A stretch of DNA of 63,999 bases, counting the filler, from Reclinomonas americana ATCC 50394 (taxonomy: Eukaryota), in the NCBI GenBank assembly GCA_048213135.1. It is 10 parts of 5 records of this genome, joined end to end, with 100 filler letters (N's around TTAATTAATTAA, not from the genome) between each part and the next. Parts side by side here need not be neighbours in the genome. Positions count along the whole stretch, not along the records: positions 1 to 6,194 come from PS015640.1; positions 6,295 to 12,311 come from PS015641.1; positions 12,412 to 28,462 come from PS015642.1; positions 28,563 to 46,133 come from PS015642.1; positions 46,234 to 48,923 come from PS015642.1; positions 49,024 to 52,031 come from PS015642.1; positions 52,132 to 58,814 come from PS015643.1; positions 58,915 to 60,551 come from PS015643.1; 2 more parts are not named here. One strand, written 5' to 3'. Position numbers and translations under genes: made by a program. The notes below the pieces were generated by a model. The model had not been told where the DNA came from and searched no databases. It was given only the letters and a program-made list of their open reading frames with translations. This document shows, piece by piece, positions 2,035-63,852 of this stretch. Within the stretch, counting starts at the first letter, position 1; the number at the start of each line of letters is the position of its first letter.

Positions 2035-5000
2035 ATGGCGTCGTCGTCGCCTGCACTTCCGCGTGAACGGCCGCTGGCGAATGTGCGAGATTACTATGGT
2101 GTGTGTAGGCGCATGTGTGAGTGAAGGAGAGGCAGAGAGCGGAGGAGAGGCACATACTGCATCGTCGCAAACAGGGATGATTTGTGTCACCTCCCTCTCT
2201 CTCCCTTTTCCTCGCTCCCTTCACACAGATCACTTTGGCATTCCCCGTGATGCCAGTGACGACGACCGACTGCAGTCCAAGGAAGACATGCGCGCGCGAA
2301 TGAGCCGGTTGACGGCTGCACTGGCGGAGGCCCAGCGCTTGTCGAATCGCCGAGTCGCGAACCAGATTCTGTCACGCTATTCCTCATTGTCGGAGCACTG
2401 CGAACGCCGCTATCCCTTTGTCGACGAGGACGAGGACACGATATCGATGGCAGGTGAGCGCGGCTGATATTCATATGAGGAGAACATGGTGCTTACGCTG
2501 AGATCGCGAAGCGCAACTTTTGACGTGGGCGGCTCATCGAAATCCAGCGTCTGCAAAGAACTGTGTGGCCCGCATGATCAGCTACATGCACATTGGCCGC
2601 GAACGCTCAGCACGCGATCTGCTGCTTGATCCCAACGCACGCAAGCTTCTTCTGGAGGGTGAGGTGCACAGTTGTTGTCTCTTCAGTCACCGCACCGCTG
2701 CGCACTTACAACTACGTATGTAGCCTTTTGTGTGTCGCAGCCGTTCGACGTCTTAAATCTGGAGCCAGTGAAACACGGCCTTCTGCAACCTGCGCTTCTT
2801 GATGACCGGCATGTCATCATTCAACGCATCAGATCGCTACTGCAGCCAGAGGACGACGATGAGAGTGTCACTCGGTCCGTACGCGTTTTGTCGACTCTAT
2901 TCTCTCGCTTCTCATCTCGTCCTCTAAGAATGTCGTACGCAGTGCACGCAAGGAGTGGATGCACGCAATGGACAAGATTGCCGGAAGGAACTACGCGAGT
3001 TGCGTTGTTGGAGTTGGAGAGCAGAGCGGAGCAGAGAGGCGAGCGCTGCGGGCCACTACCGCATTCGTCACTGGACTGTGACTCGTGCAATTTAACGTGC
3101 TCACTGTCTGACCTCTCGTGCGCAGTATTTGCGTACTCCGAGTTTGCCGTGGGAATGCGTCACTGGTCCACGACGCTCGGTGATCTGCTGCTGAACATGT
3201 TCGACGAGAGCAGCACGGTCAGCGTGGACTACGGTGCCGAGTTCAACCACTGCGTGTCTGACTTGCAGCTGAATGTGCGACTCTCGGACGCCGACGGCAG
3301 CACTGTGGCGCCTCTGTTCTTTGTCGAGTGCAGGGGCGGGAAAACGTATCGCGCAAGGTACATCGACTTGACCGATCATCACAAGCGTAAACTCACCACA
3401 AGTGTGCCTCCTCCCCATGCAGCTTCCGTGGTCATCGATGGCCAGAGGACACGATTGCCGCCGACACGCCACTGACGCGCGCTGTGCTATCATGCGATGC
3501 CGCGTATTTTGACAGTGATGGGTACAGCCCACCTCGAATGGCAACGGACGAGGACGATGCACGTGCAGCAGCATCGCCACACACCATGCTGCGCTCGCAG
3601 TTTCTTTGCGTTCTGGGCCCGCACCCCGACAACATGAAAGCCATTCACGCGGCTTGCTGGTCGTGGTGGCGCTTGGCGGCGCATCTCGAGAATGCAGAGG
3701 ATCGACAGCATTTGGTGACGAGCTTTGCTCTGACCACCGAGTGGTCGATTGCACTGTTTGCGATCACTTGGGGTGGACCGCCGCCCGGATCGTCGACAGG
3801 CGACACTGTGTGCACGTCGGCTTCTGGTGAAGAGATCGACTCCGACGAGGTTGAGAAGATGCGTGCGGCCCGCAGTGTGTTGCCACTGTTGCGCATTTCG
3901 CCGATTGGAGTGTGGCACGTGCGTGGCTCTGCTGAGTGTCCAATCGACTTTGCTCTGCTCACTGGCGGCCATGATTTTTGCGGCCATCAAGGTGAGTCGG
4001 TGGCCCTGGCGTGCAAATCGTCGCTAATCTCCTTTTTTGGTGCTTCTCATTGTACGTTTACTTACAAATTGGTTGCTGGCTTGCAGTTGGTGACGCTGAG
4101 ACGCTGTTTGCTGCATTTGTGGCTCTGTTGCAAGTGTGTCACGAATCGGTGCGATCTCTTCGCGTTGAGCCGGACGGCACCATGCTTGAGGCGCTGCAGC
4201 ACGTGTTTGTGGCTCCGGCGTCTCCGAATCCAGGTTCGGCACATGAGATATCCTCTCTGCCTCACTTGGTCGTCCCTCTTACTTGTCGCGCCTACATGTA
4301 AAGCTCGTACGTCATCAAGAACAGGCACGCAAGACACGGATTCGGCAGTGCGAGACCAAGCACCGATTCCTGCGATATCCGAGCCGTTCGCGAAACGGTG
4401 CGGCTCACGAGCAGCTGCCGAGCACGAATTCAGCGTGTTGCAGGGCGCTTGCGACAGGCTGCCTCGTCGCAGCCGTCTGTGCTGCAGCGATTTCCGACGC
4501 CTGTGGGTGTGCGTGGCGACATTCTTCTGCTGTTACCACTGGCCAACGACACCATGCACGATATGGACGATGTGCGCGTGCTGGTCCGTGATGTGGCAAT
4601 GGCGCTGCAGCATGCACATCAATTGGGATGGGCGCACATGGACGTCAAGCCAGACAATATCATGTACAATCGGCGCGACGGCGCCGTTCTTATCGACTGG
4701 GGCCTGTCGTGCGATGTGCAAGTGTACAAGACCCGCCAGCACCGGTTCATGGGCACGCGGCTATACGCGGTATGCACACGCATCACCCTAATGCACATAC
4801 CTGTCACTGAATCACTATATTACTGTGCATATCTGTGTGTCGCAGTCGCCAGAGGTGCGCGGTGTGGACTCGTTTGAGGAATGCAGAGGAACGGTGGCGC
4901 CGCCGGCCGACATGTGGAGTTTTGGTGTGACGGTGGCTTCGCTGGTGCTTGGCGGACTGCAGGGAGTGTCGGATTGGCTGATGGTGCCTGAGGAGCAGAG

Positions 5001-5184
5001 TTTGCAGATCTGTCAAGCGCTGAAGAGGGCCGCGTCACATGCTCCGCGTGGTGGAGAACTTCACGCGTCGCTGCATTCGGTGGCGTCATTGGTGGAGCAG
5101 TTGCTGCAGTTCTGGCCGTCGGAGCGGTTGACGGCGGCGCAGGTGCTGCAGCATCCATTTTGCGCCGAGAAGAATGTCGTTTGA
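2035..5184 (+). pseudogene. Crinkler-like REase-like + kinase gene, copy 2, with a +2 frameshift at about 4444
   Basis: Multi-exon model from ATG 2035. It has a PD-(D/E)xK-like segment VSDLQL...LFFVECR (about 3255-3333) and kinase motifs. CAGGGCGC here versus CAGCGC in copy 1 breaks the frame. Confidence 0.65.
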
Positions 5185-5378
5185 AAGGACCGCGGCCACT
5201 TGCGCGTCGGAGGGCGAACATTGAGTTGCGACTATGTAGCGGATCGGCGTGTCACAAGCGGCGTCCGCATCATGCGTGAGGGAAAAATCAGTGAACAGCA
5301 AGCAACTCCATGCCCCACCCACGTGCTTATCTCTCAGACAACAAACACTCTCCTCCACTTCATCACTATCCCCCTCCA

Positions 5379-6194
5379 TCACGGATGCGCCTTCAACTGA
5401 ATGCACGCCGACTGGCCGTGCACACTCGGCGAGCTGGGCGTGGCCAGCACGATATTGTTGGCCACTTGCACGTCCAGGTGCACATTGGAAGTGCTCGACA
5501 CGGCCTTGGCGCCGTTCGGGTAGTGCAGCGCAAACTGCGCAAACACCTCCGTCGGCGCCTGGATGCTGGTGTCGATGGTGAAGCAGAACTCAAAGTCGTT
5601 GGTGGTCGAGTCGTAGTGCATGCGCTCCGGCACGCCGGCGACGGCGCGAGCGTAGGTGCGACTGACCACGTTGACGAAGCCCGGGTCGGGCGGACTGCCA
5701 CCGTCCCACGCCATGCCCCACTCGATCCACGACTGGAAGTGCTTGTCGGCCAGGTCCATGACAAAGGCGCACTCGGCGAACTCCTTGCGACTGCACTCGC
5801 CAAACTGAGTGCAAAAATGCGAGGGAAAATGAGACGTCGGTAAGCAGAGGAGATTAGGGGAGAGCGACGCGCCTCGGTCATCATGCCGGCACCGCCCGTG
5901 CCCACCACATCCTTGGTGACGGCCTCAAAGACGAGCGGGCCAGTGACCGGGTCACAAAAGGCGCGACGGTCACCAAAGCTCGCGCAGTAGTAGTGACTGG
6001 TGCGCAAGAGTCAGCATGAAGAATGTGAGCGACAGAGAGACAGGCATGAACGCAACTAGGAGAGCACCGAGCGATTGCGGTACTCATCTCCACCCGGAAC
6101 ACTGCGTGGCGGGACAGTGAGTGAGCGGTGGCGAGGGACAACAGCGGAGCGACTGCGCCGACGAAACTGAGTGAATCCAGTGCCGGCAATCTTG
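5379..6194 (-). CDS. GH5 endoglycoceramidase-like glycoside hydrolase, 3' part
   Basis: Spliced: GTGFTHVPGGDEYRNRSVLSYHYYC...MMTE|FG (nucleophile motif)...SW.EW...SRTYARAVAG, plus a C-terminal beta-sandwich. Confidence 0.85.
5805..5872 (-). other. GC-AG intron (GAG|GCGCGT...CAG|TTT)
   Basis: Only this donor restores the GH5 TEFG motif in phase 0. Confidence 0.75.
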
Positions 6195-6294
6195 NNNNNN
6201 NNNNNNNNNNNNNNNNNNNNNNNNNNNNNNNNNNNNNNTTAATTAATTAANNNNNNNNNNNNNNNNNNNNNNNNNNNNNNNNNNNNNNNNNNNN
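6195..6294. other. Artificial contig linker N-TTAATTAATTAA-N (also 12312-12411, 28463-28562, 46134-46233, 48924-49023, 52032-52131, 58815-58914, 60552-60651, about 61778-61877)
   Basis: Identical 100-nt all-frame-stop spacers. Confidence 0.97.
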
Positions 6295-12280: not shown

Positions 12281-12421
12281 ACACCCTTGCGCCATCGGCG
12301 AGAGAGCAAATNNNNNNNNNNNNNNNNNNNNNNNNNNNNNNNNNNNNNNNNNNNNTTAATTAATTAANNNNNNNNNNNNNNNNNNNNNNNNNNNNNNNNN
12401 NNNNNNNNNNNGTCTCTCTCT

Positions 12422-13298: not shown

Positions 13299-15063
13299 TC
13301 ATCGCGTCACTGTCGGTCTGCTGCTGCTGCCGCCGCTCGAGCTCCACGCAGCCGGGGCCAGTCGCTCACCGCCACTTCCTCCGCCACCACTACCACCACC
13401 ACCACCACCACCGTTGCCACTATGGCTGCTGCTTCCTCCCACCAGCGGAGTATGAATGACGCGCTTCGTGGCGCGTCGTGCCGTCTCGTCGGCCGCCACC
13501 GCCGACAGAATGGCTTCGGTGATGCGGGCGGTCAGGCCCCACATGATCAGGTCGCCCGGCATGTGAAACACGGGCCCCGAGTACGTGTAGCGCGAGGTGG
13601 GAATGTCGAACTTGGATTCGTAGTTCTGCGCGGGAGAGGACGTCAGTCGAAGGAGTGCGACGAAGGAGGCATGAACAACGCAACGTCCACCAAGTAGCGA
13701 ACGGTGGGCAGAAGCACGGCGTCGATCTCGGCCTCTGTGGGGGGAAGAGGAGTTAGTAACAGGGAGGAGAGAGAGGGGTCTGCAAGGGTTGGAGTAATGT
13801 AATGTCCTCACAACACTGCAACGAGGATAACCGTGGCGCAACTCTATTGACAGGAACACAGAGAGATTGAGAGAGACAGAGAGAATAGGGGGGTGAGAGA
13901 GAGAAGAAGGAGGAGGAGGTGGAGGAGGAGGAGAAGAAGAGGAAGAAAAGAAGAGGAGAAGAAGAGGAAGAAAAGTAGAAGAGGAAGAAGAAGAAGAAGA
14001 AGTAGAAGAAGAAGGAAGTGAGGACGAAGAGAAGAAGTAGAGGAAGAGGAAAAGAAGAAGGAAAAAAGAAGAAGAAGAGGGAAAGAGTGAGTGTGAGAGC
14101 CAGCGAGCGAGAGAAATTCAGACTCTTGTGTACACTAGGGCCCAGCACGGATGAACGCAAGAGAAAACGAGCGCGTCTGAGAGAGAAAACAACAAACACT
14201 AGTGTCTCAGCACGGAGAGAAAGGAAGAGAAATAAATGTTCGTTTGCATGAGAGAACAGTTGCTTTGTGCGCAAGGCGTCTGCACGGCGAGAAAGGAAGA
14301 GAAAAGAGTGTTCGTTTGAGAACAGTTGCGTTGTGCTCAAGGCGTCTGCACGGGAGAAAGGAAGAGAAATGAGTGTTCGTTTGCATGAGAGAACAGCTGC
14401 TTTGTGCGCAAGGCGTCTGCATAGACGAAGCAGAGAGTGTGAGTGTGCTTCTGCTTAAGAGAGCAGTTGCTTTGGCATAAGGTGTCTGCATGGACGAGCG
14501 AGAGAACTAAGAGGCAGAACAAAAGCGAGAGAACGAAAGTGAGACACAGCGTGAGAGGCAGAGAAAAGAAAGAGATGTAGAAGTGAACCGAGGCTTCTCC
14601 CTTCCCCTCTCCCTTCCCCCTCCCCCCCCCCCCCCTCCCCCCTCGCACCTTGCAAGGTCATCTGCGCCGGCACCAGCGTCCCATTCAACACAGCCACCAG
14701 CGGCGTCACATTGATATTCGTCGAAAACGTATTAAACAGTGGCAACTCGCCGCACACCATGAGCGGTGTCACCCGCAAACCCGTCTCCTCCAGTGTCTCC
14801 CGCGTCGCCGTCTGCAGCGGAGTCTCATTGCTCTGTTGCATGCCACCGGGAAGACCTGCGGAGAGCATGATGTCAAGATGCGAAGATGCGCGCAATGTCG
14901 AGCGAAAAAAGGAGAGGGAGAAAGGCAAAGCAGAGGAGTGCAAGAGGACACTTGTGCAACTTCTCTCTGTGTGTGCTGTGAGAGCAGTGACTGGTGAATA
15001 TGCGCACAATCGCACATACCCGTACTGCTGTCAGTCATTCAACAGTCTCTCTTCCTCTGCGCT

Positions 15064-16436: not shown

Positions 16437-17486
16437 TCACTCCCACCAATCAATAGCCATCGGTTCCCGCACCCCACGCGGCCTCACCGGTCGTCGCCGA
16501 CTGGCGGAGGCCATGATCAGATCCTCCGCATCGGCCTCGGCCTCGGCCATGTCATCCCTCTCGTCGAACTCGCTGCGCAAGTCGTGCATGCGCAGCTCCA
16601 GCTCCTCCACCTCCTCTTCCTCCCCTTCTTCCTCCTCCTCGCCCTCCTCCTCGTCCTCCTCCGCCATCTTCCGCTGCTCCAGGCGCCTGGCTCGGGCGCG
16701 GAAATCCATCTCCGTCTCGGTCCACACGCACTTGTCGGGCGGTGGTCGCAGGCTGTCGGCACGCACCGGCAGCTGCCAGCGCGCCAAGTGACAGAGAACG
16801 CGCTCGGCCGACTCGCTGCATCGCGCGTGCTTGCCGAGGTGCTCAATGTGGGCGCGCACTCGACGGGAGGAGAGTGCGGCGAGGAGTTGTGGAGCTGCGC
16901 AGGAGGAGTAAGAAAACCGATGGTGGGAGGCAACGGATGACGAGACACACACACACCCCACGGCGCCAGCGCATCCACCAAATCGAGAATGCGACTGGCT
17001 TTCGCGACATGCGAGTCCTGCATCAGCAGGAACACGATACCGCCGACGGAAGCCAGCTGCGCAATGGCCCGCGCAAACACATTGTCGTGCACTGCCGTGT
17101 GGCGTGAGTCGTGCGAGGGACTGGGACCGAGAGACAAGTGTACGAAACAGGCGCACGACACGAGCGTGGCACATGCGTAGACGGACTGCGCGAGGCGCGG
17201 GGCGCCCTCTGGTGGCAGAAAAGTGCACAGCATGGCCAGACCACCGGCCTCCACCAGCCGGAGCACGGCGTGGCGGTGCGTGTAGCGGCACGATTCTAAT
17301 AAAGTGAGGCGATGGGAGAACAGGGGAGAATCGGGGAGGGCAGGCGCGCACCTTGAATGGCCTTTTGGATAACAAACAGGATAAAGGCGCGCATGTTCTC
17401 GGAGGTGGAGTCGCGGCGGAGGACGGTGAAGAGATCGGAGAAGGAGTGGATGACGGCGTCGATGCTCCCGACTGCGAAATGAAGGG

Positions 17487-21215: not shown

Positions 21216-21905
21216 TCACACTTTCAATCCTGAACTGCAATCGCCACTCGTCGCGCACACAGTATTAGTGACCGGCGGCACCACTCCAGCTTTGAGGCAG
21301 CACGTCCCCGTTGAAGACGTGTAAGTCCAGCTCCCGCACGCCGCCTCGGCGGAGCACGCCACCGAGCAAGCTTGTGGTCCTCCGTACAAGTCGCTGTTGC
21401 AGCTCACATCCACACCACCTGTTCGAGCTATATGCACACGATACACACCACCTTTACATCAGCACAGGTATTGAAGGATTACGTGACAGCACACACACAC
21501 ACACACACACGCAACCAGAATAGATCTCAAAGTTCCAGCTGTCATACTTGGCCGCGAGTGTTTTCTTGCCCGACGACATGCAATAATGGGACCCACAGAT
21601 GTTGCTGGTCTCAGCATTGGCCACTGTGGCTGGAACAGTGGACTGGAAACTCTCAAGGATGAGCACGTGATGGCAACAAAAACCAATTCGCGCCAACATC
21701 CAACAACGTAATTAACCTGGAGCTTGCACAAATTGACACCGTCCGCGTTGCTGGCCGCTGCTCCATCCAAAAACGTCCATGATCGACACACCGGGTCGCG
21801 ATCACACAGGTCGCAGCACGCCAGCTCGTGCGCAACTCCCGTGTGCACCGTGTACACACTCCCTGGCCGGTCAACGGCTTCGATTGCGCACACCTCCAGA
21901 CCCAC
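21216..21905 (-). CDS. PAN/Apple (PAN_4)-domain protein, 3' exons; 5' end probably extends toward about 22400
   Basis: Two motifs: CCDLCDRDPVCRSWTF...CKLQ and CSVACSAEAACGSWTY...CCLK...SG. Confidence 0.7.
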
Positions 21906-27202: not shown

Positions 27203-28420
27203 TCATGAGAACACGGTGACGAGCTCGGCGCCAGAACCGCGAACCATGACGACGCGCTTCAGATTGTGCGTCAGTTTCTCCATGTACTCCATGTCTGTGT
27301 GAAACAGTGTTAGTGTGTGTGTGTGTCGGGCGTGCATGTGTTTGGGACGTAACAGTAGGAACGCGGATAAGTTTCTTGCGGAGCTGGCATGTTGATGACC
27401 ACAAGATCGGCTTCCGAGGAATGCGACAGAATGGTCTTGTTTAGCGTCTTGGCCGAGTGCGTAAACTCCTCACGCGAAGTGCGATCGCTGCAGAGCAATT
27501 GCGTCAACACATGACGACGCAGCAGATGGGCAAGGAAAAGCAGCGTGCGGCGCGAAACTCCAGTGTCGACTCGAGATCAGTGCCGCCATAAGTCTGTGCC
27601 ATCAGCTCATCCATATCGAGCATTGACTCGGCACGGCTCATTTGTGCCGACTCCATGTATCGGTGGCGGCTCTGTGATGCCTGATCCACGTTGNNNNNNN
27701 NNNNNNNNNNNNNCGCTTGTACTGCACCATGCTGTCCTCGCGCTGCACAACAACAAGAAGACGAATCAGTGGCTGCACAGCGCTCAAACAATTTATGCTG
27801 ACAAACGCACCACTTGGACGACCTCCACTGTGGCGTCGATTCGGAGATCATACATGAGCTTCTGCAGGCTGGTGGTCAGTGCGGCCGAGCGCTCGGGCGA
27901 GTCGGCCAGAGTGAGAATGCGGATCTCGCACTCCTTCCAGATGTCGTGCTTGCGAAGCAAGTGCACCATCAGCAGCTCCAAGCCACCATCATCTGCAAAT
28001 AGATGCACTTGAGTGAGACTCGCAACAGGATTGTGAAACATTGCAAAGAGTGCAGACGCAACGAATGAACCACCAAACGTCAATGTGGCCGCGCATCTTC
28101 TGGCTCTTATCGACAGGGAATTCCTCCAGTCCTTTGCAGACCACCACGGCGATTTCGGCACGATGGGCGTCGGACAGCATGTTGACAAACGTGTTGGCCC
28201 ATTCTCTGTCCTCTCGCCAAGGACGTGGCCAGCCGATGACGATGGTGTTGGGAGCCAGGGGACCGAGGCCACAGCTCTGGACAAGTGACTGAACTCCGCG
28301 AGGGAACGATTCAGCAACAAAGGTGAGCGCAAAGCCCTGCACGCCAGCATCGTCCATCAGCGTGGCGAGTAGCTGTCTCTTGCGACGGGCGTCCTCCCAG
28401 TCGTCGGAGAAGTCGCCCTA
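27203..28420 (-). CDS. Cation-chloride cotransporter (SLC12/KCC-like), C-terminal domain, 5'-partial
   Basis: GLGPLAPNTIVIGWP, IDVWWFIHDGGL, LNKTILSHSSEADLVVINMP, YMEYME...VRGSGAELVTVFS*. Confidence 0.93.
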
Positions 28421-28562
28421 CACACACAGTGCACGTGAGCAGGGCACGCGACAACGGCGTCCNNNNNNNNNNNNNNNNNNNNNNNNNNNNNNNNNNNNNN
28501 NNNNNNTTAATTAATTAANNNNNNNNNNNNNNNNNNNNNNNNNNNNNNNNNNNNNNNNNNNN

Positions 28563-30743: not shown

Positions 30744-32607
<1,864 letters not shown>

Positions 32608-37884: not shown

Positions 37885-39455
37885 ACTCGAATAGCTGGCG
37901 GCTGCGGTGGTGGACCAGCAGCCACTTGCCGTTGTGGCTGCCCGGCCACCTGCTGCTCTGCTCCCGGCGTGACGTCACCCAGCTGGCCGCGAAGCTGCTC
38001 GAACTCGCCGCGCAGAAGCGAGAGCTGGTCGCTGAGTTGCTCGATCTGGATGGCCGCGAGGGGAAGGGAGGGTGAGGGGGAAGGAAGGGGAAGAGAGAGG
38101 GAGGAGGAGAAGGAGAGGGAGGACGTGAAAAGAAATGGAGAGCACAGAAAGAGAGAGCCTTTTCCCTACCTGCAACTGCATGCGCTCCCGTTGCTCAGCG
38201 TGCAAACGCGTCGCCTCGTGCGCCTCCTTTGCCAGCTGCTCAATCTGTCGCCGCTGATCCACAATCAGTGGCTCCAGCGCCACGTACACGCACTGCGCCT
38301 CGTGCGCTGCCGCCTCGTCGTTGCGTCCACGCCACGAGCAGCCGTATTGGGTCAGTCGGCACGGGACGCGTCGGAACGGGCACTCGTTCTCTGAGCACGA
38401 AAAGGGGATGAGAACAGCGGAGAAGGATTCACTCTCCTTGTCCAACTCACCCACGTGATTCAGCAGCTCCGCCAACGGCATCTCCTTGTCGCACTCGGGA
38501 CACTTGCGCTTGCACACCGACGCATGCGCCTCGTAGTACTCCTGAATGGAGCACGTGGTCGGGCACCGCGGGCACCTCACGCGAATGCTGCTGTAGTCGC
38601 GATGCAGAAACGGTGGCGCCGCTTGCGCCGTCTCCAACGACGTGTCGCAACAGCCGCACACGTTGATGCGGCGCAGAGCAACGAGGTGCGCTCTGCGGTT
38701 GACTCGTGTGAGTAAGGAAAGGGGACATTGGGGTGGTCAATGAGCGCAACTTGCAGACCACATGCTGGCCCTGTGAGTGGACACAGCAACAAGGCGATGT
38801 GAGTGGCGAGTGATATGCACAGAGACAGAACACAGCCGCAACATTGGCACACAGCGCAAAGCTCGTGGCCGCCACATCCTGCACGAAAACGATCAGCGCA
38901 AGAACGCAAATAGAGAACAATGAAGGTACTACAGGATCCCACCTTGCACACGGCACAAACGTACCTGCGCGCACAAGAGGTCAGTCGCACGTTCCATGAA
39001 GGTCTCACTGATTCGGCTCTCAGTCACACTGTGGATTCACAAGCTCGCTCGCTCACTCACTCACTCCCTGTACTCACACTCACTCACTCACTCACTCACT
39101 CACTCGAGCTCACTCACTCACTCACTCACTCACTCACTCACTCACTCACTCACTCACTCACTCCACGCCTAAGTCGTCGCCTAAGACATCGCCTAATCAT
39201 CATTAGGCGCGCTCCCTCTCTCTCTCTCTCTTCCTCTCACTCACCGCTCAGCGAGTAATCGATACGCAGGCTCGCAATCATCCAGTGTGATGCCCGCAAC
39301 GCGCATCGACGCAGGCGCAGAAGACGACGAAGAACCTGAGAGAGAAGAGAGAGTGAGTGAGTGAGAGAGTGAGTGAGTGAGTGAGTGAGTGAGTGAGAGA
39401 GAGTGAGAGAGCGAGTGAGAAGAAGAGTGGGCAAACGCTCAACACCTTCGCTCAT
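36031..39455 (-). CDS. RING + TRAF-type zinc fingers + coiled coil + polyQ + TPR protein (about 12 exons)
   Basis: CAVC...CANGQHVVCKAH...CGCC; VRCPRC...H...C; CPFRRVPC...GCSW...H...C; TPRs AYNNRA, YWNNRG, AYHNRA. Confidence 0.85.
39040..39160. repeat. (CACT)n intronic microsatellite (also about 39350-39400 and 39680-39790)
   Basis: Direct reading. Confidence 0.9.
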
Positions 39456-40389: not shown

Positions 40390-42210
40390 NNNNNNNNNNN
40401 NNNNNNNNNNNNNNNNNNNNNNNNNNNNNNNNNNNNNNNNNNNNNNNNNNNNNNNNNNNNNNNNNNNNNNNNNNNNNNNNNNNNNNNNNNNNNNNNNNNN
40501 NNNNNNNNNNNNNNNNNNNNNNNNNNNNNNNNNNNNNNNNNNNNNNNNNNNNNNNNNNNNNNNNNNNNNNNNNNNNNNNNNNNNNNNNNNNNNNNNNNCT
40601 CTCTCTCTCAATTCTCGGGTTGATTGGACCCTTCTTCCCGCTCTCTTTCCGCATGAACAGAGTTCTCCATCAGTCTTTCACTTCTCCGTTGGTGTTTGTT
40701 GAACTGAGCAACCACTGCCCCTTCTCTTCGTGCTCACTCTCCACTTGGATTGCTGTGATCAGAGTTCTCCACAAGGCTTTTACTCTCAATCTCGAGTTGT
40801 CGCAGTGCCCTCTCTTCTTTCTCACATGAGCTGAGTACTTCCAAGCTTCCTCTCTCAATTCAATTCATGAGTTGAACTGAGCTGCCGCTTCATCTTCTCT
40901 CCAACTCGCTTCACCCCCTTCATCCTTATCTCGCTCTCTTGTCTCTTCGCAAGTGTCGGCCAGTGTGCAATCCCACCTCCTCCTGTCTCTAGTTCCTCTC
41001 GCTTGACTCGCTCCATCTTTCGCATCGTCTCAGCTGCATTCGTTGACGTTGCTGGTGTCTTCACTCACTCTCCCTTTGCCCACTCTCCTTCGCCAGGCTC
41101 CCAACCCGCCATGGCATCCGTCACCCTCTTGCAACGCGTGCGGCATCCCATTGTCGCCGCACGCCGCATCATGGACAAGTACGGCATTCTGACTCTCGGT
41201 GGACCGGTTCGTCTCTCCGCCCTCCGCCAACCGACACTCACTCACCACCCGCACGCAGAATGCCGACGCAGTGGCCGAGGAGCTGGGATGCGAGATGGTG
41301 GAGCAGTCGTTCTTCGACACGGAGCAAAGACTGCTGCAACTGGAGAGTGCGCGAGCGGCCGGTCGTGCATCACTGGACCACGGAGGCAGCATGACGGCGG
41401 TGACCAAGACCGGCAACGAATTTTGTGTGAATCGACCTGCCACGGCGGTGCCGCTGGATGGTGAGGGAGGAGGAGGAGGGGTGGAGGAGAAGATGGGTCG
41501 CCGTGTCTCTTTCGGAGCCTGTACCTCTCAGTCTTTCCATTGTGTTCCTTCTCCTCTTCTTAGCTCTGCCTGCTTACTATCTTGCTCCTCCTCCCTCATT
41601 CTGATTACTGTCATCCTCATCCACTCCTTTTCCTCTTCGCCTTCCCCTTTCACTCATTCCCCCCTCGCAGCCAAGTTCGGCACCGTCGGAGCCGTGGCAC
41701 TCGACGTGCACGGCAACGTGTGCGCCGGCACCAGCACCGGCGGCCTCACCAACAAAAAGGTCTCGCTTTCATTCCTCCCTTCCACCATCTTTCCCTCCTC
41801 CTTACACCCACGCAGGTGGGTCGCATCGGCGGAGTGCCCACCTTCGGCCACGCCACGATTGCGCGCAATAGCTTGTGCGGTCTGTCCTTCACCGGCATTG
41901 GCGAGGTGATGATGTATCACTGCGTGGCACACGACCTGCTGGCGCGCATGCAGTACAAGGACGTGTCACTGCGGGAGGCTGCTGACACGCTGTTTGACGA
42001 TGTGCTGCCCGACGACGTTGGCGGCATGATTGGCATTGATTGTCGCACTGGCGAAGTTGCGTGCAAGCCACGGATGAGAGAATGCGAGCACAGCTGACTG
42101 AACCATGCCTCTGTGCCTTCTTGCAGATTATTATCAAGTACTCCAGTGAGGGCATGTTCCGCGGCTGGGCCACGCCGCATGAGCGTGGTGTGGCCATTTG
42201 GGATTCTTGA
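39512..42210 (+). CDS. Isoaspartyl peptidase/L-asparaginase family (Ntn hydrolase, ASRGL1/IaaA-like), multi-exon
   Basis: LVLHGGAG, LEDCPLFNAGRGAV...ELDACMADG, GTVGAVALD...TSTGG, TGIGE, GMFRG. Confidence 0.93.
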
Positions 42211-45247: not shown

Positions 45248-46763
45248 TACAGCAATGAAATCGCTCGCCGCTCTCCCTTCCCCCCTCCCTTCCCTTATCG
45301 CCCTTTCTCTCGCTTCACGCAACATAAACCGTAAACACTGAATGACTGCGCGATGAGCGATCGTTCATCGCCGTCTCGCCCGTGGTTCGCCGAGCTGTGC
45401 CCGCTGCATACGCCTCCATGATATCCGACATGCTCTGCACCTCGACCTCGGTCAAATCTGCACGACACCGTGAGTGACACGCCACGGGGGAAAACACAAA
45501 AAGTCACGCAACTGTCGACATAGATACCGCGACCGCCTCGCGTGCCATCCTGCCTAATCTGCAACGGCCCATCGTCGGCATCGTCCGGCGAGTCCGCCGG
45601 CGACGCAGCAGCCGATGCAGCCGCTCGCCCACCTCGCGGCTTGGACGGCGATGCATCACGCGGCTTGGACGGCGACGCATTGCGGCCCTGGTTGGCCGGC
45701 GACAGCAGATCCTTCAGCTTTTCCATGTAGATCTCCAAGTAGCTCACGCGCAAGCGGTACTGCATCCGCGACGAGCGCTCGTTCAACTGCGCCAGCAGCT
45801 GCTCGACCAGTCGCGGGGTGATGCCTGGGAGGGGGAATGGGCGGGAGATGAGAATACGGACAAGGCGTAGAAGAAGAAGGCGATTGGGATGCACAGAGAG
45901 AGAGAGAGAGAAAGGATACGACGGTGGGAGCGCTGAGGCGCAAGAGAACACGGACAAGGCGTAGAACAAGAGAGCGATTTGGGCTGCAGAGACAGACAGA
46001 CAGAGAGAGAGAGAGACGACAGTCACACGAGCCTCGTTGCGACGACTGGAACCCTCCGCCTTCCATGGTGTGCGTCTTGCCGGAGCCCGTCTGTCCGTAT
46101 GCGAGAATCGTGGCATTGTAGCCCTGCAGCACGNNNNNNNNNNNNNNNNNNNNNNNNNNNNNNNNNNNNNNNNNNNNTTAATTAATTAANNNNNNNNNNN
46201 NNNNNNNNNNNNNNNNNNNNNNNNNNNNNNNNNAGTGGAAGGATGTTGGCCGCGGTGCCGCCGTAGATCACCTCTTGGGTGGTCTCCGGGCCAAAGGCTC
46301 GATCAAAGGCGAAGGTTCGTGCGGGGCCTTTGTTGATCTGAGGAAGGGAGAGAGTGAGGGAGGGAGAGGGAGGGAGGGAGTGAGCCACGCACCAGTGCCA
46401 CTTGAGCGCCTTCGGTTTGAACACAGACGCCACCATCCGCTGCATTCTCGCGTGCTGTTTGACACACAGAGAGTGAGTGTCCACTGCGCGACCCACTCTC
46501 TGCTTCTGACACAGACGCAAACCGTTGGGCGGTCTGGCGGTGGTGGCAGGAGGCAGGCAGGAAGAGCGATGAGTTCAATTTCGTTTTCGCGCGCGCGTTG
46601 TTGTCACTGTCATCTCTCACCTGACTCGCACGGCGACAATGACACTGGCGGTGCCGGCAGAGGAGCGGCCGAGTGCGGCGTTTGCTCCTCCTGTGCGAGC
46701 GGCGACGGGAGTGTCGGCACCGGCGGCGGCGGAGGCGTCGACGGCTCCGGGAATGTCTGCCAT
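42306..46763 (-). CDS. Kinesin (N-terminal motor, short coiled coil, C-terminal CCCTVL); spans a contig linker
   Basis: [77 protein letters not shown]. Confidence 0.95.
45825..46032 (-). other. GC-AG intron in kinesin (CGAG|GCTCGT...CAG|GC)
   Basis: Restores RGITPR (kinesin GIIPR motif); the nearest in-phase GT donor would give RGSCITPR. Confidence 0.65.
46523..46533 (-). other. 11-nt microexon of kinesin (ACCGCCCAACG)
   Basis: AG/GT-flanked and required for VRVRPPNARE. Confidence 0.75.
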
Positions 46764-52000: not shown

Positions 52001-55000
52001 GCTTCCCCCATCGCTTCCCCCATTCCTTCCCNNNNNNNNNNNNNNNNNNNNNNNNNNNNNNNNNNNNNNNNNNNNTTAATTAATTAANNNNNNNNNNNNN
52101 NNNNNNNNNNNNNNNNNNNNNNNNNNNNNNNCTCCCTCCTCCTCTCCTCCTCTCCTCCTCTCCCTACCCGCTCCCCTCCTACTCTCCCTACCTCCTCCTC
52201 CGCCCCCCCCCCCCCCCCCCACTCCCTCTTCCCCTTCTTCTCCCCTTCCCCCGTAGCTCCTCCCTGGTGGACGACGTGCGCCACAACCTCGAGGAAGCCC
52301 GCCGCATCCTCGACCGCTTCATGGAGGGCCAGTTGACCAGCCCCGACCCCCCAGATTCCGACTCCGCCGCCGCCGCCGCCGGCAACCCTGCCGCGGAGTT
52401 GAGCGCCTCTCTGCAGCGTCACCAGTCGGTGGACCCTGATGGTGCAGTATTCCTCGCCCTCCCCCCTTCCCCTTCCCCCTTCCCTCACCTACCCATTCAT
52501 GGCAGTCCTGGTGACGCGTCTCGGCAGCTGGGCTGCGGGCGAGATGCAGCACACGCTGCATCAGTTCCTGCGCGCCTTCGGCGACTCGTACGCGCAAATG
52601 TGCGAGGACATTGGCCAACAGCTTCTCCTCACTGGCGAGCTGCGCACGAACCTGAAAGTGTCGCTGCTGCGCACGGGCTCTGGCGAGGTGCTGTCGGGCA
52701 TGGTGGCCAAGAACCTCCAGAGTCTGCTCTCGGCTGTTGCGCAACGTCCCATCAACTTTGCACCTCCATCGCGACGCTTTCTCATTCTGTCGCCCCTGCT
52801 CAGCTTTCGTCACGCATCCCTGGTATTGTCGACAACCTGCAGGCTGCGGGCGAAGCTTTTGCATCGCTTATGGCCGCCGACGGTCGCATGCTGGCCGCCC
52901 TTCGTCTGCGCGTGAAGAACCTGTCGGAGATTTGCGAAATGTACGACGAGGTGGCCGAGGTCACTCGCCGCAAGATCGCCACGGTGACGCACTTGGTCGA
53001 TCTGCGCAAGCGCATCTCCGATTCGAGTGTCACGGCGCTCGCGGCGGAGGAGGCGGTGCTCGATGCCGAGTACGAGCTCGACAAGATGATGCTGTGCGGT
53101 GCCGACGACACGGTGTGTGTGCCAAAGCAGCAAAGGTGTACTTGTTAAATGAGTCCCTCACTTTGTCTCGCATCCACCAACAGGCACTGACGTCTGCCGT
53201 GAAGCGATACGACGATGCCGTTCGCGAGCAGCGCAAGCAGCGTGAGCTGGCCGAAGAGATCTCCACCGTGTCGGTCGAATCATTCGAGGTCATTTCGTGG
53301 TAGCCTCCTCCCCCCGCTTGCGTTTTCTCGACTCATTCTGTGAGTTTTGCGACACAGGAGTGGGCGCCGGAGGCTGCCGTGTATCTCAACTCGGAGTTCA
53401 TGGAGGCGATCACGAAAATGTTCGCCGTGGATGAGGTCGACGCGTCGACCGTGGCCAGTCGAATTCCGCGCGGTATCCTCCAGGTCAGTCGCGTTTGCGT
53501 TCCCTCGTGTGTGTCGCAGTGGCTCAACTGTTTTCGCACAGGGTGGTTTGATGGTCAACCGCACTCTCAACGACTACGACTTGCACGAGGAGGTGGTGCC
53601 GCGCGTCTTCCGCGCCAAGTTTCGTGCGCACACACAGACATTGGTGCCTGCATTTGCACATTTTTCCAACCCCCTGCTGTTGCAGATACCGCAAGTGCAT
53701 GTGCACGTTGCAGGCGTATGTGCTGGAGGAGAGCATGGAGCAATTTGTAACCAGCGTATGGTACGTGCCTCATGCTTTGCCTGGTTTGTGGCCGTGACTC
53801 ATGCTCGCTGTGCACAGGATTTCTATGAATGTCGTCCACCACGGCATCATTCCCGTCACTGCATTCTTCTTCGAGGGCCACACGGCCTACGTGGAGCGTC
53901 CGTTCTACGGTGGCAACACTCTGCGTAACTGGTTGTGGCAGCAGGTATTCTTCACGGGGTTTAAAGGCACGCGTACCAGCTGAGCTCATGTTGTTGGCAT
54001 TCTCGCGCAGTTGGAGCCTCACGAGGACGAGATTCGTACCATCTTCCGACAGGTGCTGGAGGCCCTCGAGTGCCTGCACATGCACGGAGTTGTTCATGGT
54101 GAGTCATGTGGTTTATGAGTAGAAGAGGTTATGCTTTCAAAGTCCTCACTGCTGCATGCAGGCAATCTGACTCTCGACTCCATTCTCATCGACGAGGACT
54201 TTGCTGTGCGCGTCACGAATCTCGACTCGGTAAGTGGATCGAGTCATTCTGCGCGGAGGTGCCAGTTCGTACTGATCGTTGTGGATGGTGGTGCAGGCGT
54301 ACGTGCAGAACAGCGACATGTTGCAGCGCCCGCTGTTCGCTGGAACCATGATGAATGCCGATTACGTGGCACCGGAGTTGCTGAACAGGGTGAGTGGATG
54401 TGGACGAATGGAGAGGAGTAATGGGACGACAGAGCTTCTGTTGCACACTTTGCCTTCCTTTGCCCACGTGCTGCTCTCTCCCGTTGCTTCGTCTTCGAGT
54501 TGCAGTCTCTCTTTTTTGTTTTTGTATACCGTGTCTGTATGATCTCCTTGTCTTCGTCCTCGTTTCTTATTCTCTCTTTCTCTCTTCTCTCTCTCCCTTC
54601 GCTAATTTGGCTTGCTTCTGTGCCACTTCCTGCCCCCAGCTTGTATTCTCTCTCCTTCTATGTCTCTGTTGCAGTCGTTCTGTTTGTCTTTGTCCATCTG
54701 TCTTGCTTCTTTCTGTCACCTCATAAGTTTCACTCTTTCCCTCCTCCTCCTTCACCGCTCTTTTTGCAGCCTTCTTCGTTTTCTTGTCTCTTCTCTGTGT
54801 GTGTGTGTGTGCCTCGCTCTTTCTCCATAGTTGACAACCTTTCTCGTTTTTCCCGTCTTTCTCGCCCACCTCTCCTCCTCCGTTAAATCACTTACTTTTG
54901 CCCTCTCCCTTCTCTCTCTCGTCTCTCATTCCCCCACCACCACTCGCAGGACGCAACGCTGCCGAGCGTGGCCACCGACATGTGGTTTGTCTGCTTGTAT

Positions 55001-56779: not shown

Positions 56780-58525
56780 TCCTTCTGCCTCCGTCCCTCT
56801 CATATGTATTCAATTCCCTTCGGTTTTGGAGACGAGAGCCCTGACTTTTCTCCTTTTTTGTTCAGCGGATGAGGCAAGTGCTCGGCGACGTGCGGCGAGG
56901 CGAGCGCGCGGAGATGGAGAGCGAGGTGAGTTTTGGCGTGGGCGGAGTTTCGCAAAGGGCTCAAAGTGGAACTTGCATGCAAAATCGGAGTGGCGGCTCA
57001 GCGGGGAGATTGTTCCTCTTCTCGTCCCCTCTATTGCCCTTCTCTCACTTCTGTTCAAGCGGTTATCCTCTTCCTCGCACTCTTCCATCGACTTGCTTAC
57101 CTCGTCCACGCAGTTCGTCTTTTTTTCTCTTGCTTTTCCACCATCTCATCGTTCTCTTTCTCCACCTCCTCGTCTCCTTCTCGCTGCAGATCAAGTGGCT
57201 CCCTCCGTTCTCTTTACTTCCTTGCCCTGTTCACTGCAGTTCAGGTACAACTCGCCTTTGCTTCACCGTCAAGTCGTTCTCTTCCTCCACTACCTCGTCT
57301 CCTTCTCGCTGCAGATCAAGTGGCTCCCCTCTTTCTCTCTTTCTTCCTTGCCTTGTCCGCTGCAGTTCAGGTACAACTCGTCTTTGCTTCACCGTCAAGT
57401 CGTTCTCTTCCTCCACTACCTCGTCTCCTTCTCGCTGCAGATCAAGTGGCTCCTCTCGTTCTCTTTTACTTCCTCGCCTTGTCCACCATTTCAGCCCGTA
57501 AATCTCTTGCTGTTCAGGAACAACTCGTCTTCTACTTCTCCTTCTTTTCCGCCATCTCTCTCTCTCTCCGCGTCCTCTTTCGCTCCGTCTCGACGCTACA
57601 GCCCTCTTTCGCCCATTTATTCTCTCTCGTTTTCGCCGTCTTTTCGGCGTTCTTCTCCTATTCTCTCTTCGTCATGCTCTCCTCTTGCTCCTCGCCCTCC
57701 CGATCAAGATGCTCGCCCCACATCCCTCTCTCGCAATTGTTTCTCTCAGTCTCTGTGTGTGAAAGAGTGAGAGATCCTCAGAGGCCATCCTCCTCTCTAT
57801 CACACACTCTTTGTCACTCTCTTTCTCTCTCGTGCACTCCCTCTTCCCCCCTTCCCTCCCTTTCCCCCTTTCCCCTTTCCCCCTTTCCCCCTTTCCCCCT
57901 TCCCCCTTTCGCCATTTCCCCCTCCCTCCCTTTCCCCCTCCCTCCCTTTCCCCCTCTCCCTCTCTCCTTTCCCCTTTCCCCTTTCCCCCTTTCCACCTTT
58001 CCCCCTTCCCCCCACCCACCCCTCTTCTTCAAATCGTGCAGTGGGAACGCGGAGAGAATGGCATGATGCCTGCCATCGGCGCACCGCTTTCGTGGTTCTC
58101 GGTTTGTGCGAGCGACATGCACTTGTCTGTGCGGCGTCCCCTCCTTCTCTGACCCGCGCGATGAACAGATCTATGGCATGATTGTCGCCAAGTTCCTCAT
58201 CGAGGACTGCACGATGCCGTGGACCAACTACTTCTGTGAGTTTGTATTCTTGCACTGCTCTCTGTCGTTGCCGATCGCACTGACGACGAGCACGAACAAC
58301 AGGTCCAATCCTTCTGCGCTACATTTGCCCGACAGAGAATGCACTCGCCGGCCCGCCTCAGATGACGCTGCGAGTTGCGAATCTCCCATTCTCATAGGGT
58401 GCTTCCACTGCTGACCACACATCTCCTTCAATGCGTTTTCATAGGATCTCGATGCTTTCAACCCGACCATGGCCAGAAGACTACGCATGATACTGGTGGA
58501 GGATCTGCCGACGGAGCTGCCAGAG
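48586..58525 (+). CDS. Large coiled-coil + pseudokinase + HECT-like protein (about 20 exons, 3'-partial; spans two linkers)
   Basis: Exon phases match across both linkers. Kinase fold HGNLTLDSILID, VTNLDS, YVAPE, DMWSFAV; then IYGMIVAKFLIED..MP...F and TLRDLDAFNPTMARRL resembling a HECT N-lobe. Confidence 0.75.
51895..52031. repeat. 12-bp intronic tandem repeat (ATTCCTTCCCCC-like)
   Basis: Direct reading. Confidence 0.85.
57165..57460. repeat. About 125-bp intronic tandem repeat (about 2.3 copies)
   Basis: CTCGCTGCAGATCAAGTGGCTCC at 57180, 57305 and 57431. Confidence 0.9.
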
Positions 58526-61578: not shown

Positions 61579-61878
61579 GGGACAGAAAAAAAGGAACGGA
61601 AAAAAGCGAGAGAGCCAGTTGGAGACACTCGAGGAGCTCCACTGGACCCCCAGCCCATGTACAAGCGAGGAAGAGGAGGGAGAGAAAGGAGAAAAAGACG
61701 CAGCAAAACATGTGGTTATTGCATGGAAAAAAGAAAAAGGAAAATGAGTGAAAAACTAGAGAACTGTGTATTGCGAANNNNNNNNNNNNNNNNNNNNNNN
61801 NNNNNNNNNNNNNNNNNNNNNTTAATTAATTAANNNNNNNNNNNNNNNNNNNNNNNNNNNNNNNNNNNNNNNNNNNNA

Positions 61879-62562
61879 ATCACCGCCTGGGTCATCTACT
61901 GGTACTTTATCAACTCGTTCCGCGCACTGGCCAGCTGGGATCCGATCGAGTACGCCCTCATGCTGCTCATTCCGGCCATGTTCCACTGGTTGTACTTGTC
62001 GTTCAAGCAGGCGGTGTACTTGTGGCGAGCACGTGGACGCATGCTGCGACTGGCGTCGCAGTTGAATGGCGGAGGAGTGGAGCAGACGGCGTTCCATGCG
62101 GAGCTGTATGAGTGGGCGGTCGGAGGCAACCCGCTGTGGCTCGAGTCGGTGGTGCTGCGGGCGACCAACCCTGCGACTGAGATCGTCGATCAGCTGCAGC
62201 GCATCCATCAGGCGGCGGAGAAGGCGGCGTCGGCCAGCTACGCCGAGTGGTTGCAGGTGGAGGCCACGCGCTTTGCGTGGCTGTCGGGCATCGAGTGGCT
62301 GATGCTGCTGCTGAATGTGCTGGCCACGTACGGCTACGCCCTCGAGCCGCTGATGTTCCTGCTGCCCGACAGCGCCGCCGGTGGCTCGCCGGCGTGGCTG
62401 CACACCGCCAAGTTTGGCTACACCGACAACGATGCGCTCTTTTACGGCAATGTCATCGGCGACATTTGCTGGACGCTGGAGCCCGTCATCATCCTGGCCA
62501 CGCCGACGCTGATGCACAGCGTGATCGAGAGCAAGGCGGCGACACTGAAGAAGACGCAGTGA
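61879..62562 (+). CDS. Unknown multi-pass membrane protein, 3' exon
   Basis: Long codon-biased ORF with several hydrophobic segments. Confidence 0.65.
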   Translation: MTAWVIYWYFINSFRALASWDPIEYALMLLIPAMFHWLYLSFKQAVYLWRARGRMLRLASQLNGGGVEQTAFHAELYEWAVGGNPLWLESVVLRATNPATEIVDQLQRIHQAAEKAASASYAEWLQVEATRFAWLSGIEWLMLLLNVLATYGYALEPLMFLLPDSAAGGSPAWLHTAKFGYTDNDALFYGNVIGDICWTLEPVIILATPTLMHSVIESKAATLKKTQ

Positions 62563-62693
62563 TGCGGAGAGGCACTCAGCGATGGCGTTGTAAACAAGAA
62601 GGAAGCTGGTACATGCATTTTTTCTCTCTTTTTTTTCTCTCTGTTCGATCTGCACAAGTCTGCATACACACACATACACACACACACGATCAA

Positions 62694-63852
62694 TCACGTC
62701 TCGGGTAACGGGGCGCGGCAGGTGGGGCATTCCATTCTGTCAGGGAGCAAGGGTGAGAAGGTGAGGGGAAGGAAGGAAACAGAAACTGAGAGTCGCAACT
62801 TCATGGCCATCCACCGCTCCAGACACTCGGTGTGGAAGACATGATTGCACGGGGTGATCATCACACGTCGATCACGCATGGCCTCCCGCCGCTTCCGCTT
62901 AATGGCATCGCTCACTCCCGGTTCTGCAGGCAGATGGGATATTAGAGGAAAATCGAGCAATCCTGTATCACAAAGTGGTGCCTCACCTCTTGCTCTCCTG
63001 TCCTCGGCGTTCATCGACAGCAGCGGCACTGCATCCTCGCCTCTACCCGATTCGAGGTCGCGGAACTCGCGTGCCTCGTCCTCATCGTCGTCCTCGTCCT
63101 CACGCTCGTCGGCTGCCGATCGGTTGATCGACACAGCGGCGGGGCGCAAGGCCGATGATGCAGCCACGGCAGCCTGCGCAGCGGCTCGAGCGTTCTGCGG
63201 CGAGTCTCCCGCCGCACCCTCCACATCGTCGACCGTGTGCATGCAAATGACACAGTCGGGCGCCTCGTGGTCCTCCTCGATCCACGCACCGAGCCTGAAA
63301 AAGTCGTACTTGGCCGGCAGCCACTGCGTGGGATGAGAGGAGTCGTCGTGAGTGTTGATGAGCGGCAGAGTGCGCCTACATCGTGAAAACACACCGATCG
63401 CGGAATGAGGAAGCGCGGACCGAGCCAGTGCTGCACGAGAAGCAGTGCCATCTGGCCGAGCACCACCATGATAATGACAATGACCAACCACGGATCCGGG
63501 CGGATGCGGAAGAAGTTGTCGGGGCAGGCGAAGAAGTCTACGGGAGGACATGAACTCCACAGCAGCAGCACGAGGAGCAGATGAAGAGGTGAGAAACGCA
63601 ACAGGCCGGTACCACCAGACGCGTAAGGCTCATCACGATAATGTATTGCCTGTGCGCAGGGTCAGCTCGGTGCGCAGCACATGATCGCGTCGAGTAAAAA
63701 TGAAACGCAACGGATGCAGTGCACGCTGTGCATCGCGCCACACATTGCGCACGATTTGCGGAAGCCAGAAGCAGTACAAGGCGACGAAAAATATCCACAC
63801 GGACGAGCCCAGGTTGTACGCCAGGAACACGCCGCCAAGAAGCACTCCATCT
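62694..63852 (-). CDS. Transmembrane RING-H2 E3 ligase, TUL1/Dsc1/FLY-like, 5'-partial
   Basis: FWLPQIVRN, TRLVVPAYFFACPDNF, GPRFLIP, CVICM...TPCNHVFHTECLERWMAMKMECPTCRAPLP. Confidence 0.9.

Follow-up and report, generated by a model that had tools for sequence, protein, structure and literature searches.

Analysis of a window of 63,999 bases from the genome of Reclinomonas americana ATCC 50394 (GenBank assembly GCA_048213135.1), which denotes here the whole stretch of DNA that was analysed, revealed two kinds of intron starts. Besides ordinary donors with the consensus G/GTGNGT (slash, exon end), the motif GTTNCG(T), mostly GTTGCGT, represents a second 5' splice-site class, which is discrete and accounts for about a fifth of the introns in the window. 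Donors of this class never follow a G at the last exon position (-1) in the final gene models, and a C at intron position +5 is obligatory. We consider their displaced-register pairing to a small nuclear RNA (snRNA) that carries a G opposite +5C, i.e., a U1 with an altered pairing site or a second U1, to be the most likely mechanism, with a probability of about 0.5. The window contains 5,389 N, a GC content of about 56% of the non-N bases, and dense short introns; the evidence base was thus 58.6 kb of non-N genomic sequence of one 64-kb window, from which the splice junctions were inferred at the DNA level.

Abundance of GTTNCG donors

An initial annotation of the window had listed 23 such donors, one of them, at 21515, tentatively. 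The hexamer named for it was found at each of these coordinates, with 17 GTTGCG, 3 GTTTCG, 1 GTTCCG, and 1 GTTACG in addition to the tentative site. The claimed absence of G at exon position -1 also held, since the 22 firm sites displayed A in 12, T in 7, and C in 3 cases and G was found at 21515 only. On both strands together, GTTGCG occurred 55 times and GTTGCGT 26 times, the mean for 7-mers being 7.1.

Gene models were obtained with a Viterbi parser based on codon log-odds trained on Pfam-supported open reading frames (ORFs) and on a score for acceptor and branch point, in which donors were constrained to GT or GC only. The donor-naive parse resulted in 129 introns, 126 of them with GT. Among the latter, 12 started with GTTNCG (8 GTTGCG, 2 GTTTCG, 1 GTTCCG, and 1 GTTACG), compared with 101 of 7203 background GT sites (p=2.6e-7). 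GTTGCG was the commonest donor hexamer of this parse (8/126) and, being 8.3-fold over background (p=6.5e-6), displayed the strongest enrichment of all hexamers. After the parser had been re-estimated four times on the basis of a smoothed hexamer donor table, the final parse comprised 93 introns in 33 selected gene models; it is partly circular because these rounds use the donor table. Eighteen of these 93 introns carried GTTNCG, which is near the 22 of roughly 100 introns estimated before. The most frequent donors were GTTGCG (13), GTGAGT (11), GTGCGT (7), and GTGTGT (5), followed within the GTTNCG class by GTTTCG (3), GTTACG (1), and GTTCCG (1). Judged from these models, GTTNCG appears to be a major donor class with about 19% of the modelled introns, and about a quarter to a third of the GTTGCG hexamers of the window are predicted to be intron starts.

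Sixteen of the 23 sites listed before were recovered by the parser, which added two more at 17148 (GTTTCG) and 37785 (GTTGCG), both on the minus strand. The sites at 6056, 6167, 37044, 37446, 45323, 62799, and 21515 were not recovered; three of them (62799, 37446, and 37044) were proven by homology. The assignment to unrelated genes was confirmed, their number being about 13 gene models rather than about 10 genes.

Junctions fixed by homology or reading frame

For verification of the junctions, 97 of the 138 predicted exons of at least 20 residues were scanned against Pfam, the other 41 being long ORFs already scanned or parts of antisense or low-score models. Based on profile or TPR continuity, six GTTGCG donors, namely 63711, 63602, 62799, 37446, 37170, and 37044, were fixed to the nucleotide, and removal of these six introns restored frame and collinearity with homologues exactly. 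Within the DUF2921 gene, profile position 171 is the last one covered by the exon before 63711 and 189 the first one covered by the exon after 63538, while the 47-nucleotide (nt) exon between the two GTTGCG introns and the two split codons yield 17 residues for 17 missing positions. Further along the same gene, the ORF reading through the intron 62799-62737 displayed a 21-residue insert in the zf-RING_2 domain; after removal of these 63 nt the exon stops at position 37, and the final seven residues cover positions 38-44. In the TPR gene, removal of the introns at 37446, 37170, and 37044 together with an intron at 37307 (donor GTGCGC) resulted in three consecutive exact 34-residue repeats with the usual conserved positions in place. 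At 37170, the TPR_1 coordinates run from 8 to 30, through the split codon (31) and three residues (32-34), and then from 1 to 17 in the next exon. None of the six introns has an equal-length GT-AG alternative within 15 nt, 37044 having just a GC-AG pair at +8. As a control, a GTGCGT intron in the ferrochelatase gene revealed profile continuity from 286 to 287.

The reading frame decided two further cases, as the introns at 6056 and 6167 jointly give the sole open frame, and a +1 shift of the two 6056 cut sites introduces a TAG, just as had been predicted. The donor at 31992, formerly thought to follow a start exon, instead closes a 32-nt internal micro-exon, and the true upstream exon of this Rpb5 gene is located at 30960-31061. 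Homology support was approximate for 45512, 42056, 31992, and 28062, the remaining sites being based on the parser. A homologous-protein search for longer relatives of the regions 36060-37025 and 27796-28356 (both minus strand) resulted in no match, and a protein-atlas search provided nothing usable. Searching metagenome contigs with a kinesin exon as query led to 37 loci, all with at most 61% identity (higher values over short pieces only), and to no close relative for a comparison of orthologous introns. All sites are listed in Table 1.

Table 1. Location of GTTNCG donors and introns in the window, with the evidence for each
Feature	Position	Strand	Evidence and remarks
GTTGCG intron, 127 nt, 5' part of second tandem kinase gene	2999..3125	+	naive and final parse
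GTTGCG intron, 60 nt, GH5-family gene	5997..6056	-	sole open frame jointly with 6102-6167; parser took GTGCTC at 6067
GTTTCG intron, 66 nt, GH5-family gene	6102..6167	-	open frame; outside parse since N mask cuts gene
GTTGCG intron, 59 nt, NUDIX-domain gene	13626..13684	-	naive and final parse; CTGAC branch motif
GTTTCG intron, 57 nt, newly added	17092..17148	-	naive and final parse
GTTGCGT with G at -1, ambiguous	21509..21515	-	parser prefers GTGTGT at 21510; start of GT microsatellite
GTTACG intron, 59 nt, SLC12 gene	27295..27353	-	naive and final parse; upstream exon matches SLC12 profile 350-381
GTTTCG intron, 71 nt, SLC12 gene	27488..27558	-	naive and final parse
GTTGCG intron, 70 nt, SLC12 gene	27993..28062	-	naive and final parse; downstream exon residue 1 is SLC12 profile position 243
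GTTCCG intron, 73 nt, 3' of Rpb5 32-nt micro-exon	31992..32064	+	downstream exon begins at Rpb5_N position 50; upstream exon 30960-31061 is positions 12-38
GTTGCG intron, 69 nt, TPR gene	36976..37044	-	exact 34-residue TPR on removal; sole equal-length alternative GC-AG at +8
GTTGCG intron, 66 nt, TPR gene	37105..37170	-	exact 34-residue repeat and Pfam TPR_1 continuity; no alternative pair
GTTGCG intron, 65 nt, TPR gene	37382..37446	-	exact 34-residue TPR on removal; downstream exon residue 2 onward is TPR_1 18-33; no alternative pair
GTTGCG intron, 60 nt, newly added	37726..37785	-	final parse only; branch motif CTGAC; 1-3 nt boundary ambiguity at messenger RNA level
GTTGCG intron, 58 nt, gene with weak TRAF/Sina-type zinc-finger matches	38693..38750	-	final parse; naive parse donor 11 nt upstream
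GTTGCG intron, 72 nt, gene with weak TRAF/Sina-type zinc-finger matches	38771..38842	-	final parse; naive parse donor 11 nt downstream
GTTGCG intron, 71 nt, Asparaginase_2 gene	42056..42126	+	naive and final parse; upstream exon is profile 204-279; no alternative pair
GTTGCGT donor after kinesin exon (profile 166-210)	45317..45323	-	profile resumes at 221 in exon 43277-43468; intron enters N gap 44449-45087, acceptor not settable
GTTGCG intron, 55 nt, kinesin motor	45458..45512	-	naive and final parse; downstream exon residue 1 is Kinesin position 166; KIF1A 183-223 aligned from residue 3
GTTGCG intron, 68 nt, 16-intron gene, no recognised family	52736..52803	+	naive and final parse
GTTTCG donor, parser acceptor gives 199 nt	53619..53817	+	final parse; nearer AG about 67 nt in is possible alternative acceptor
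GTTGCG intron, 71 nt	58374..58444	+	final parse; CTGAC branch motif
GTTGCG intron, 63 nt, in frame, in RING finger of DUF2921/RING E3-ligase gene	62737..62799	-	zf-RING_2 continuity; no alternative pair
GTTGCG intron, 65 nt, DUF2921 gene	63538..63602	-	17-for-17 DUF2921 profile continuity
GTTGCG intron, 62 nt, DUF2921 gene	63650..63711	-	17-for-17 DUF2921 profile continuity; no alternative pair

Intron type

Apart from their donors, GTTNCG introns resemble the other introns of the window. GT...AG ends were found in all 22 introns with a settable acceptor. With regard to length, 16 of 18 ranged between 55 and 73 nt (median 67, compared with 79 for other introns), and their base composition was the same as that of other introns. 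A YTNAY branch motif was detected in 18/18, in 13 of them as CTCAC or CTGAC, with a median of 16 nt to the acceptor, and acceptor position -3 was C in 16 and C or T in all 18. Thus, branch point and acceptor are shared with the other introns and only the donor differs, and by these features the GTTNCG introns would be genuine U2-type GT-AG introns.

U12-type (minor) introns carry a rigid RTATCCTT-type donor and a TCCTTAAC-type branch site. The class described here likewise represents a second rigid donor motif beside the major class in the same genes; it differs in that the U12-defining motifs are absent (branch motif in 0/18 GTTNCG introns, donors all GTTNCG), while branch point and acceptor agree with the major class. 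Therefore, the U12 type was ruled out. Pairing of the donor UGCG with a CGCA before the acceptor was set aside as well, as CGCAG acceptors, though not counted, seemed to be common in other introns too.

A discrete class with its signal displaced by one base

The final parse contained 75 other donors, which displayed G at -1 in 40, at +3 in 42, and at +5 in 53 cases, and T at +6 in 40. A single-register consensus with independent positions predicts 0.19 GTTNCG donors if built from these other donors, or 2.6 if built from all, compared with 18 observed (p=8e-11), and the excess proposed in the initial annotation is thereby supported. The same applies to the dependence on the -1 base, with G at 0/18 GTTNCG donors and 40/75 other donors (p=9.5e-6); A was enriched instead (10/18 compared with 8/75). 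T at +7 was found at 17/25 GTTNCG donors and at 22/76 non-donor GTTNCG sites (p=8e-4). Thus, the conserved G and T of ordinary donors at +5 and +6 are located at +6 and +7 in GTTNCG donors, and the exon-end G is unused. Comparing likelihoods over three exon bases, a shift (-146.0 bits) was better by 21.8 bits than a bulge (-167.8 bits).

C at +5 and pairing with U1

A marked restriction was identified at +5. While GTTGCG (55 sites) served as donor at 8 sites in the naive and 15 in the final parse (two of the latter in an antisense model deemed false), GTTGAG (33 sites) did so at 1 (on the wrong strand) and 0, and GTTGTG (37 sites) at 0 in both (Fisher test of GTTGCG against the two others: naive parse, p=0.010; final parse, p=1.3e-6). 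C at +5 is thus obligatory in this class. Ordinary GTGNG donors comprised GTGAG (16), GTGCG (11), and GTGTG (7), and position +4 of all 75 ordinary donors was occupied by C (25), T (23), A (20), and G (7). A standard U1 slid by one base should pass this ordinary +4 usage on to +5, which was absent, so that the C at +5 is left unexplained by standard U1.

Duplex energies were calculated with ViennaRNA using a conserved 11-nt U1 5' end. With this standard U1, GTTNCG donors revealed a median of -1.35 kcal/mol compared with -2.1 for random GT sites (area under the curve (AUC) of 0.27-0.30, i.e., worse than random), while the other donors had a median of -4.2 kcal/mol (AUC of 0.73 against random GT sites). 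Intron G+1 paired with C9 of U1 in just 4/24 GTTNCG sites, and in the shifted register a model GTTGAG was about 4.4 kcal/mol better than GTTGCG.

In the standard U1, the pairing hexamer is ACUUAC (bioRxiv 10.1101/2022.06.08.495308). Among 16 variants at U1 positions 5-6, ACGUAC was the best for all donors (AUC of 0.751 compared with 0.628 for ACUUAC) as well as for the other donors (0.78) and the GTTNCG donors (0.67) taken alone, and its minimum-energy duplex set G+1 opposite C9, i.e., in the shifted register, at 13/24 GTTNCG sites. A U1 variant with a 1-nt insertion separated GTTNCG best (AUC of 0.85), and it predicts pairing with a -1G, which was seen in 0/18. These variant scans were made post hoc; they rank hypotheses and prove nothing. 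No snRNA gene was detected in the window with Rfam at gathering thresholds, and matches at an E-value of at most 1 were sub-threshold and included no snRNA.

Proposed mechanism

Taken together, we propose that cleavage would take place at the only GU of GUUNCG(U), while the signal for recognition, located at +3 to +6 (G-N-G-U) in ordinary donors, would lie one nucleotide further into the intron, with the exon-end G unused. Given the displaced signal and the unused exon-end G, U1, and later U6, would probably read the site one nucleotide out of register, so that intron G+1 would be placed opposite U1 C9. From the obligatory +5C and the lack of useful pairing of standard U1 with GUUGCGU, we infer that an snRNA presents a G opposite +5C, in which case the U1 pairing site would not be the textbook ACUUAC. 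It might be an ACGUAC-like site serving both classes or, alternatively, belong to a second U1 paralogue.

Comparable donors are described for Archamoebae, where Entamoeba has the donor GUUUGUU with a U1 ACAAAC and Mastigamoeba GUACGU with ACGUAC (Roy and Bowser, bioRxiv 10.1101/2022.06.08.495308). They resemble our class in an unusual donor that has U at +3 and shows a preference at +7, and a G at U1 position 5 pairing with a donor C is what would rescue GUUGCGU in the shifted register. They differ in having one homogeneous donor in the normal register, whereas two classes coexist in the window, one of them displaced by a base.

Several points weigh against this mechanism. The whole case rests on the 58.6 kb of sequence given above, and the 11-nt U1 5' end used for the energies is the generally conserved one, not one taken from the Reclinomonas genome. 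A G opposite +5C is bound to favour a class defined by C at +5, and the nominal gain of ACGUAC for the other donors is small (0.78 compared with 0.73). In addition, ordinary donors have no clear +4C preference and GTGAGT is the commonest of them, whereas a strong G at position 5 of U1 would predict otherwise. Support for the register comes mainly from the missing -1G; a flank model with no preference at all (-138.5 bits) beats the shift model (-146.0 bits), and since -1G is rare before non-donor GTTNCG sites too (8/76), the register argument is suggestive and not a proof. Finally, the 75 other donors are parser output and surely contain misplaced ones.

Alternative explanations

A more far-reaching version would be that the major spliceosome employs two donor-recognition systems. 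Ordinary U1 would serve the main class, while GUUNCGU would have its own snRNA, either another one of the U1 kind or a U1 whose pairing site is altered or contains an insertion. We consider this possible, if unlikely; if true, about a fifth of the introns would form a third class, differing from both standard U2-type and U12-type introns in the way the donor is read.

Unlikely in our view is that ordinary U1 (ACUUAC) reads these donors in a shifted or +2/+3-bulged register, stabilised by proteins, as it does at rare human GUUAAGU sites. Human sites of this kind, with A at +4 and +5, pair well with standard U1. Shifted-register and bulge +2/+3 5' splice sites have been described and proven in human cells (Tan et al. 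2016, PMC4856993), and the GTTNCG donors resemble them in the extra U after GU, which moves the conserved G and U to +6 and +7, in cleavage at GU, and in an exon-end G that is not needed; the motif equals a GTGCGT donor plus one T. Furthermore, Fritillaria borealis is described to have remodelled its 5' splice sites with an unchanged U1 5' end (bioRxiv 10.1101/2025.08.15.670264). Like our class, this represents a lineage-wide change of 5' splice sites for which a shifted U1 register was proposed there, though with diverse non-GT/AG ends, while the window shows strict GT-AG introns and one added motif. Against this, human sites are rare and individually proven, whereas the class described here comprises about 19% of introns and needs +5C, and, unlike human sites, GTTNCG is predicted to lack standard-U1 pairing in any register: its duplexes are weaker than those of random GT sites, and the shifted register with standard U1 did not give a usable duplex clearly more stable than the canonical one. 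GTTGAG should be far better and is a donor at 0/33 sites of the final parse, as is GTTGTG at 0/37, and the obligatory +5C is left without a reason. The initial annotation had considered a shifted or bulged register as a major donor class, possibly through variant U1 or U6. Its displaced G and T, the missing -1G, and the share of about 19% were retained, while reading by a normal U1 as at human GUUAAGU sites was not (AUC of 0.27, GTTGAG unused). As a standard U1 in the human-style register is insufficient, variant U1 or U6 snRNAs are the likelier part of that proposal.

A dedicated second snRNA acting in parallel to ordinary U1 on the GTTNCG class only, such as a U1 paralogue with an inserted base that is complementary to GUUGCGU, is likewise unlikely. 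It would fit the rigid and discrete motif and the good separation of the insertion variant in silico, and Physarum is described to possess a standard plus a modified U1 (bioRxiv 10.1101/2022.06.08.495308). However, an inserted site would also pair with the -1G that these donors lack, and more assumptions are needed than for a single altered U1.

Recognition independent of U1, in which the class would be defined either through ACAGAGA of U6 or by a protein with sequence specificity for UGCG(U) just inside the intron, seems decidedly improbable. The class has no predicted affinity for standard U1, its G and U at +6 and +7 could equally mirror pairing with U6, and U1 registers need not be mirrored by U6, as described by Tan et al. 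(PMC4856993). On the other side, two points count against it. The ACA of U6 likewise has nothing to pair with +5C, and we know of no candidate factor.

That the class is an artefact of mis-modelled donors or just the tail of one degenerate consensus is very improbable. Though the parser missed 7 of the 23 sites, its naive pass often shifted donors by a few bases, and many other donors look degenerate, the six exactly fixed sites have no alternative GT-AG pair, 18 donors were observed for 0.19-2.6 expected, and roughly one in four to one in three of the GTTGCG hexamers of the window are predicted intron starts. Scarcely credible, finally, is a mobile intron family (introners) carrying its own donor, since, despite the rigid donor typical of introner families such as Micromonas IE-A (PMC3879977), the intron bodies are unrelated (an 8-mer shared by 4/136 GTTNCG pairs compared with 132/1431 pairs of other introns) and the full sequences share no motif beyond donor, branch point, and acceptor; an introner family was thus ruled out. 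In the absence of U12 motifs and of shared sequence, the GTTNCG introns in the unrelated gene models are considered neither U12-type introns nor introners.

Significance

To our knowledge, all displaced U1 registers described so far are rare exceptions that were proven site by site in human genes, and our searches of open-access literature revealed no description of a GTTNCG-type donor class. A genome in which one rigid displaced motif begins about one intron in five would naturally lend itself to studying how the cleavage site is fixed independently of the U1 helix, how U6 copes with an extra nucleotide, and whether snRNA pairing sites can co-evolve with a part of the intron population. For annotation, gene finders based on a single donor matrix will misplace GTTNCG junctions, as the donor-naive parser did at several sites, and the misplaced junctions would lead to gene models that are frameshifted or cut short all over such a genome.

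Gene content and further observations

A Pfam scan of 450 of the 454 stop-free ORFs of at least 75 residues (the last four, at the window end, being left out) revealed about 20 genes on both strands. Among them are genes for two tandem protein kinases, a GH5-family hydrolase, STAND/TPR and WD40 proteins, a NUDIX protein, a DUF285 protein, SLC12, Rpb5, an FAD-binding protein, an Asparaginase_2 protein, kinesin, an avidin-family protein, ferrochelatase, and a DUF2921/RING E3 ligase.

The two protein-kinase genes (10-1563 and 2968-5184, plus strand) are paralogous, with agreeing Pfam coordinates and intron positions, and share near-identical introns, e.g., with GTATGC donors at 1151 and 4770. A candidate GC-AG intron (5805-5872, minus strand) was detected in the GH5-family gene immediately upstream of the Glyco_hydro_5_C domain; its donor GCGCGT is the only GC donor retained in the selected gene models. 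Flanked by intron-rich genes, an intron-less DUF285/BspA-like ORF of 872 codons (22414-25029, plus strand) displayed best database matches of 33-64% identity; the organisms named were all bacteria or metagenomes, most matches being nameless, and no paralogue from the same genome was found among these matches. This ORF may be a gene of bacterial origin. The Rpb5 gene (30960-32604, plus strand) crosses an N gap (31171-31590) as well as long (TC)n and (CA)n tracts, its micro-exon being located at 31960-31991.

At 11 places, 44 N, 12 bases, and another 44 N follow each other (e.g., 6195-6294, 12312-12411, and 28463-28562), which differs from the larger gaps of 209-864 N. This pattern, by which several gene models are cut, looks like masking and not like assembly gaps. 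A gene at 25646-27156 (plus strand) carries a Peptidase_S74 (endosialidase chaperone) domain that is split by an intron, and the avidin-family gene is located at 47268-47798 (minus strand). In the gene at 52321-55791 (plus strand), which belongs to no recognised family and has 16 predicted introns, the donors are highly varied, including GTCAGT, GTCATT, GTATTC (three times), GTAAGT, GTGAGT, and others, and donors other than the two main motifs seem to carry a weak signal.

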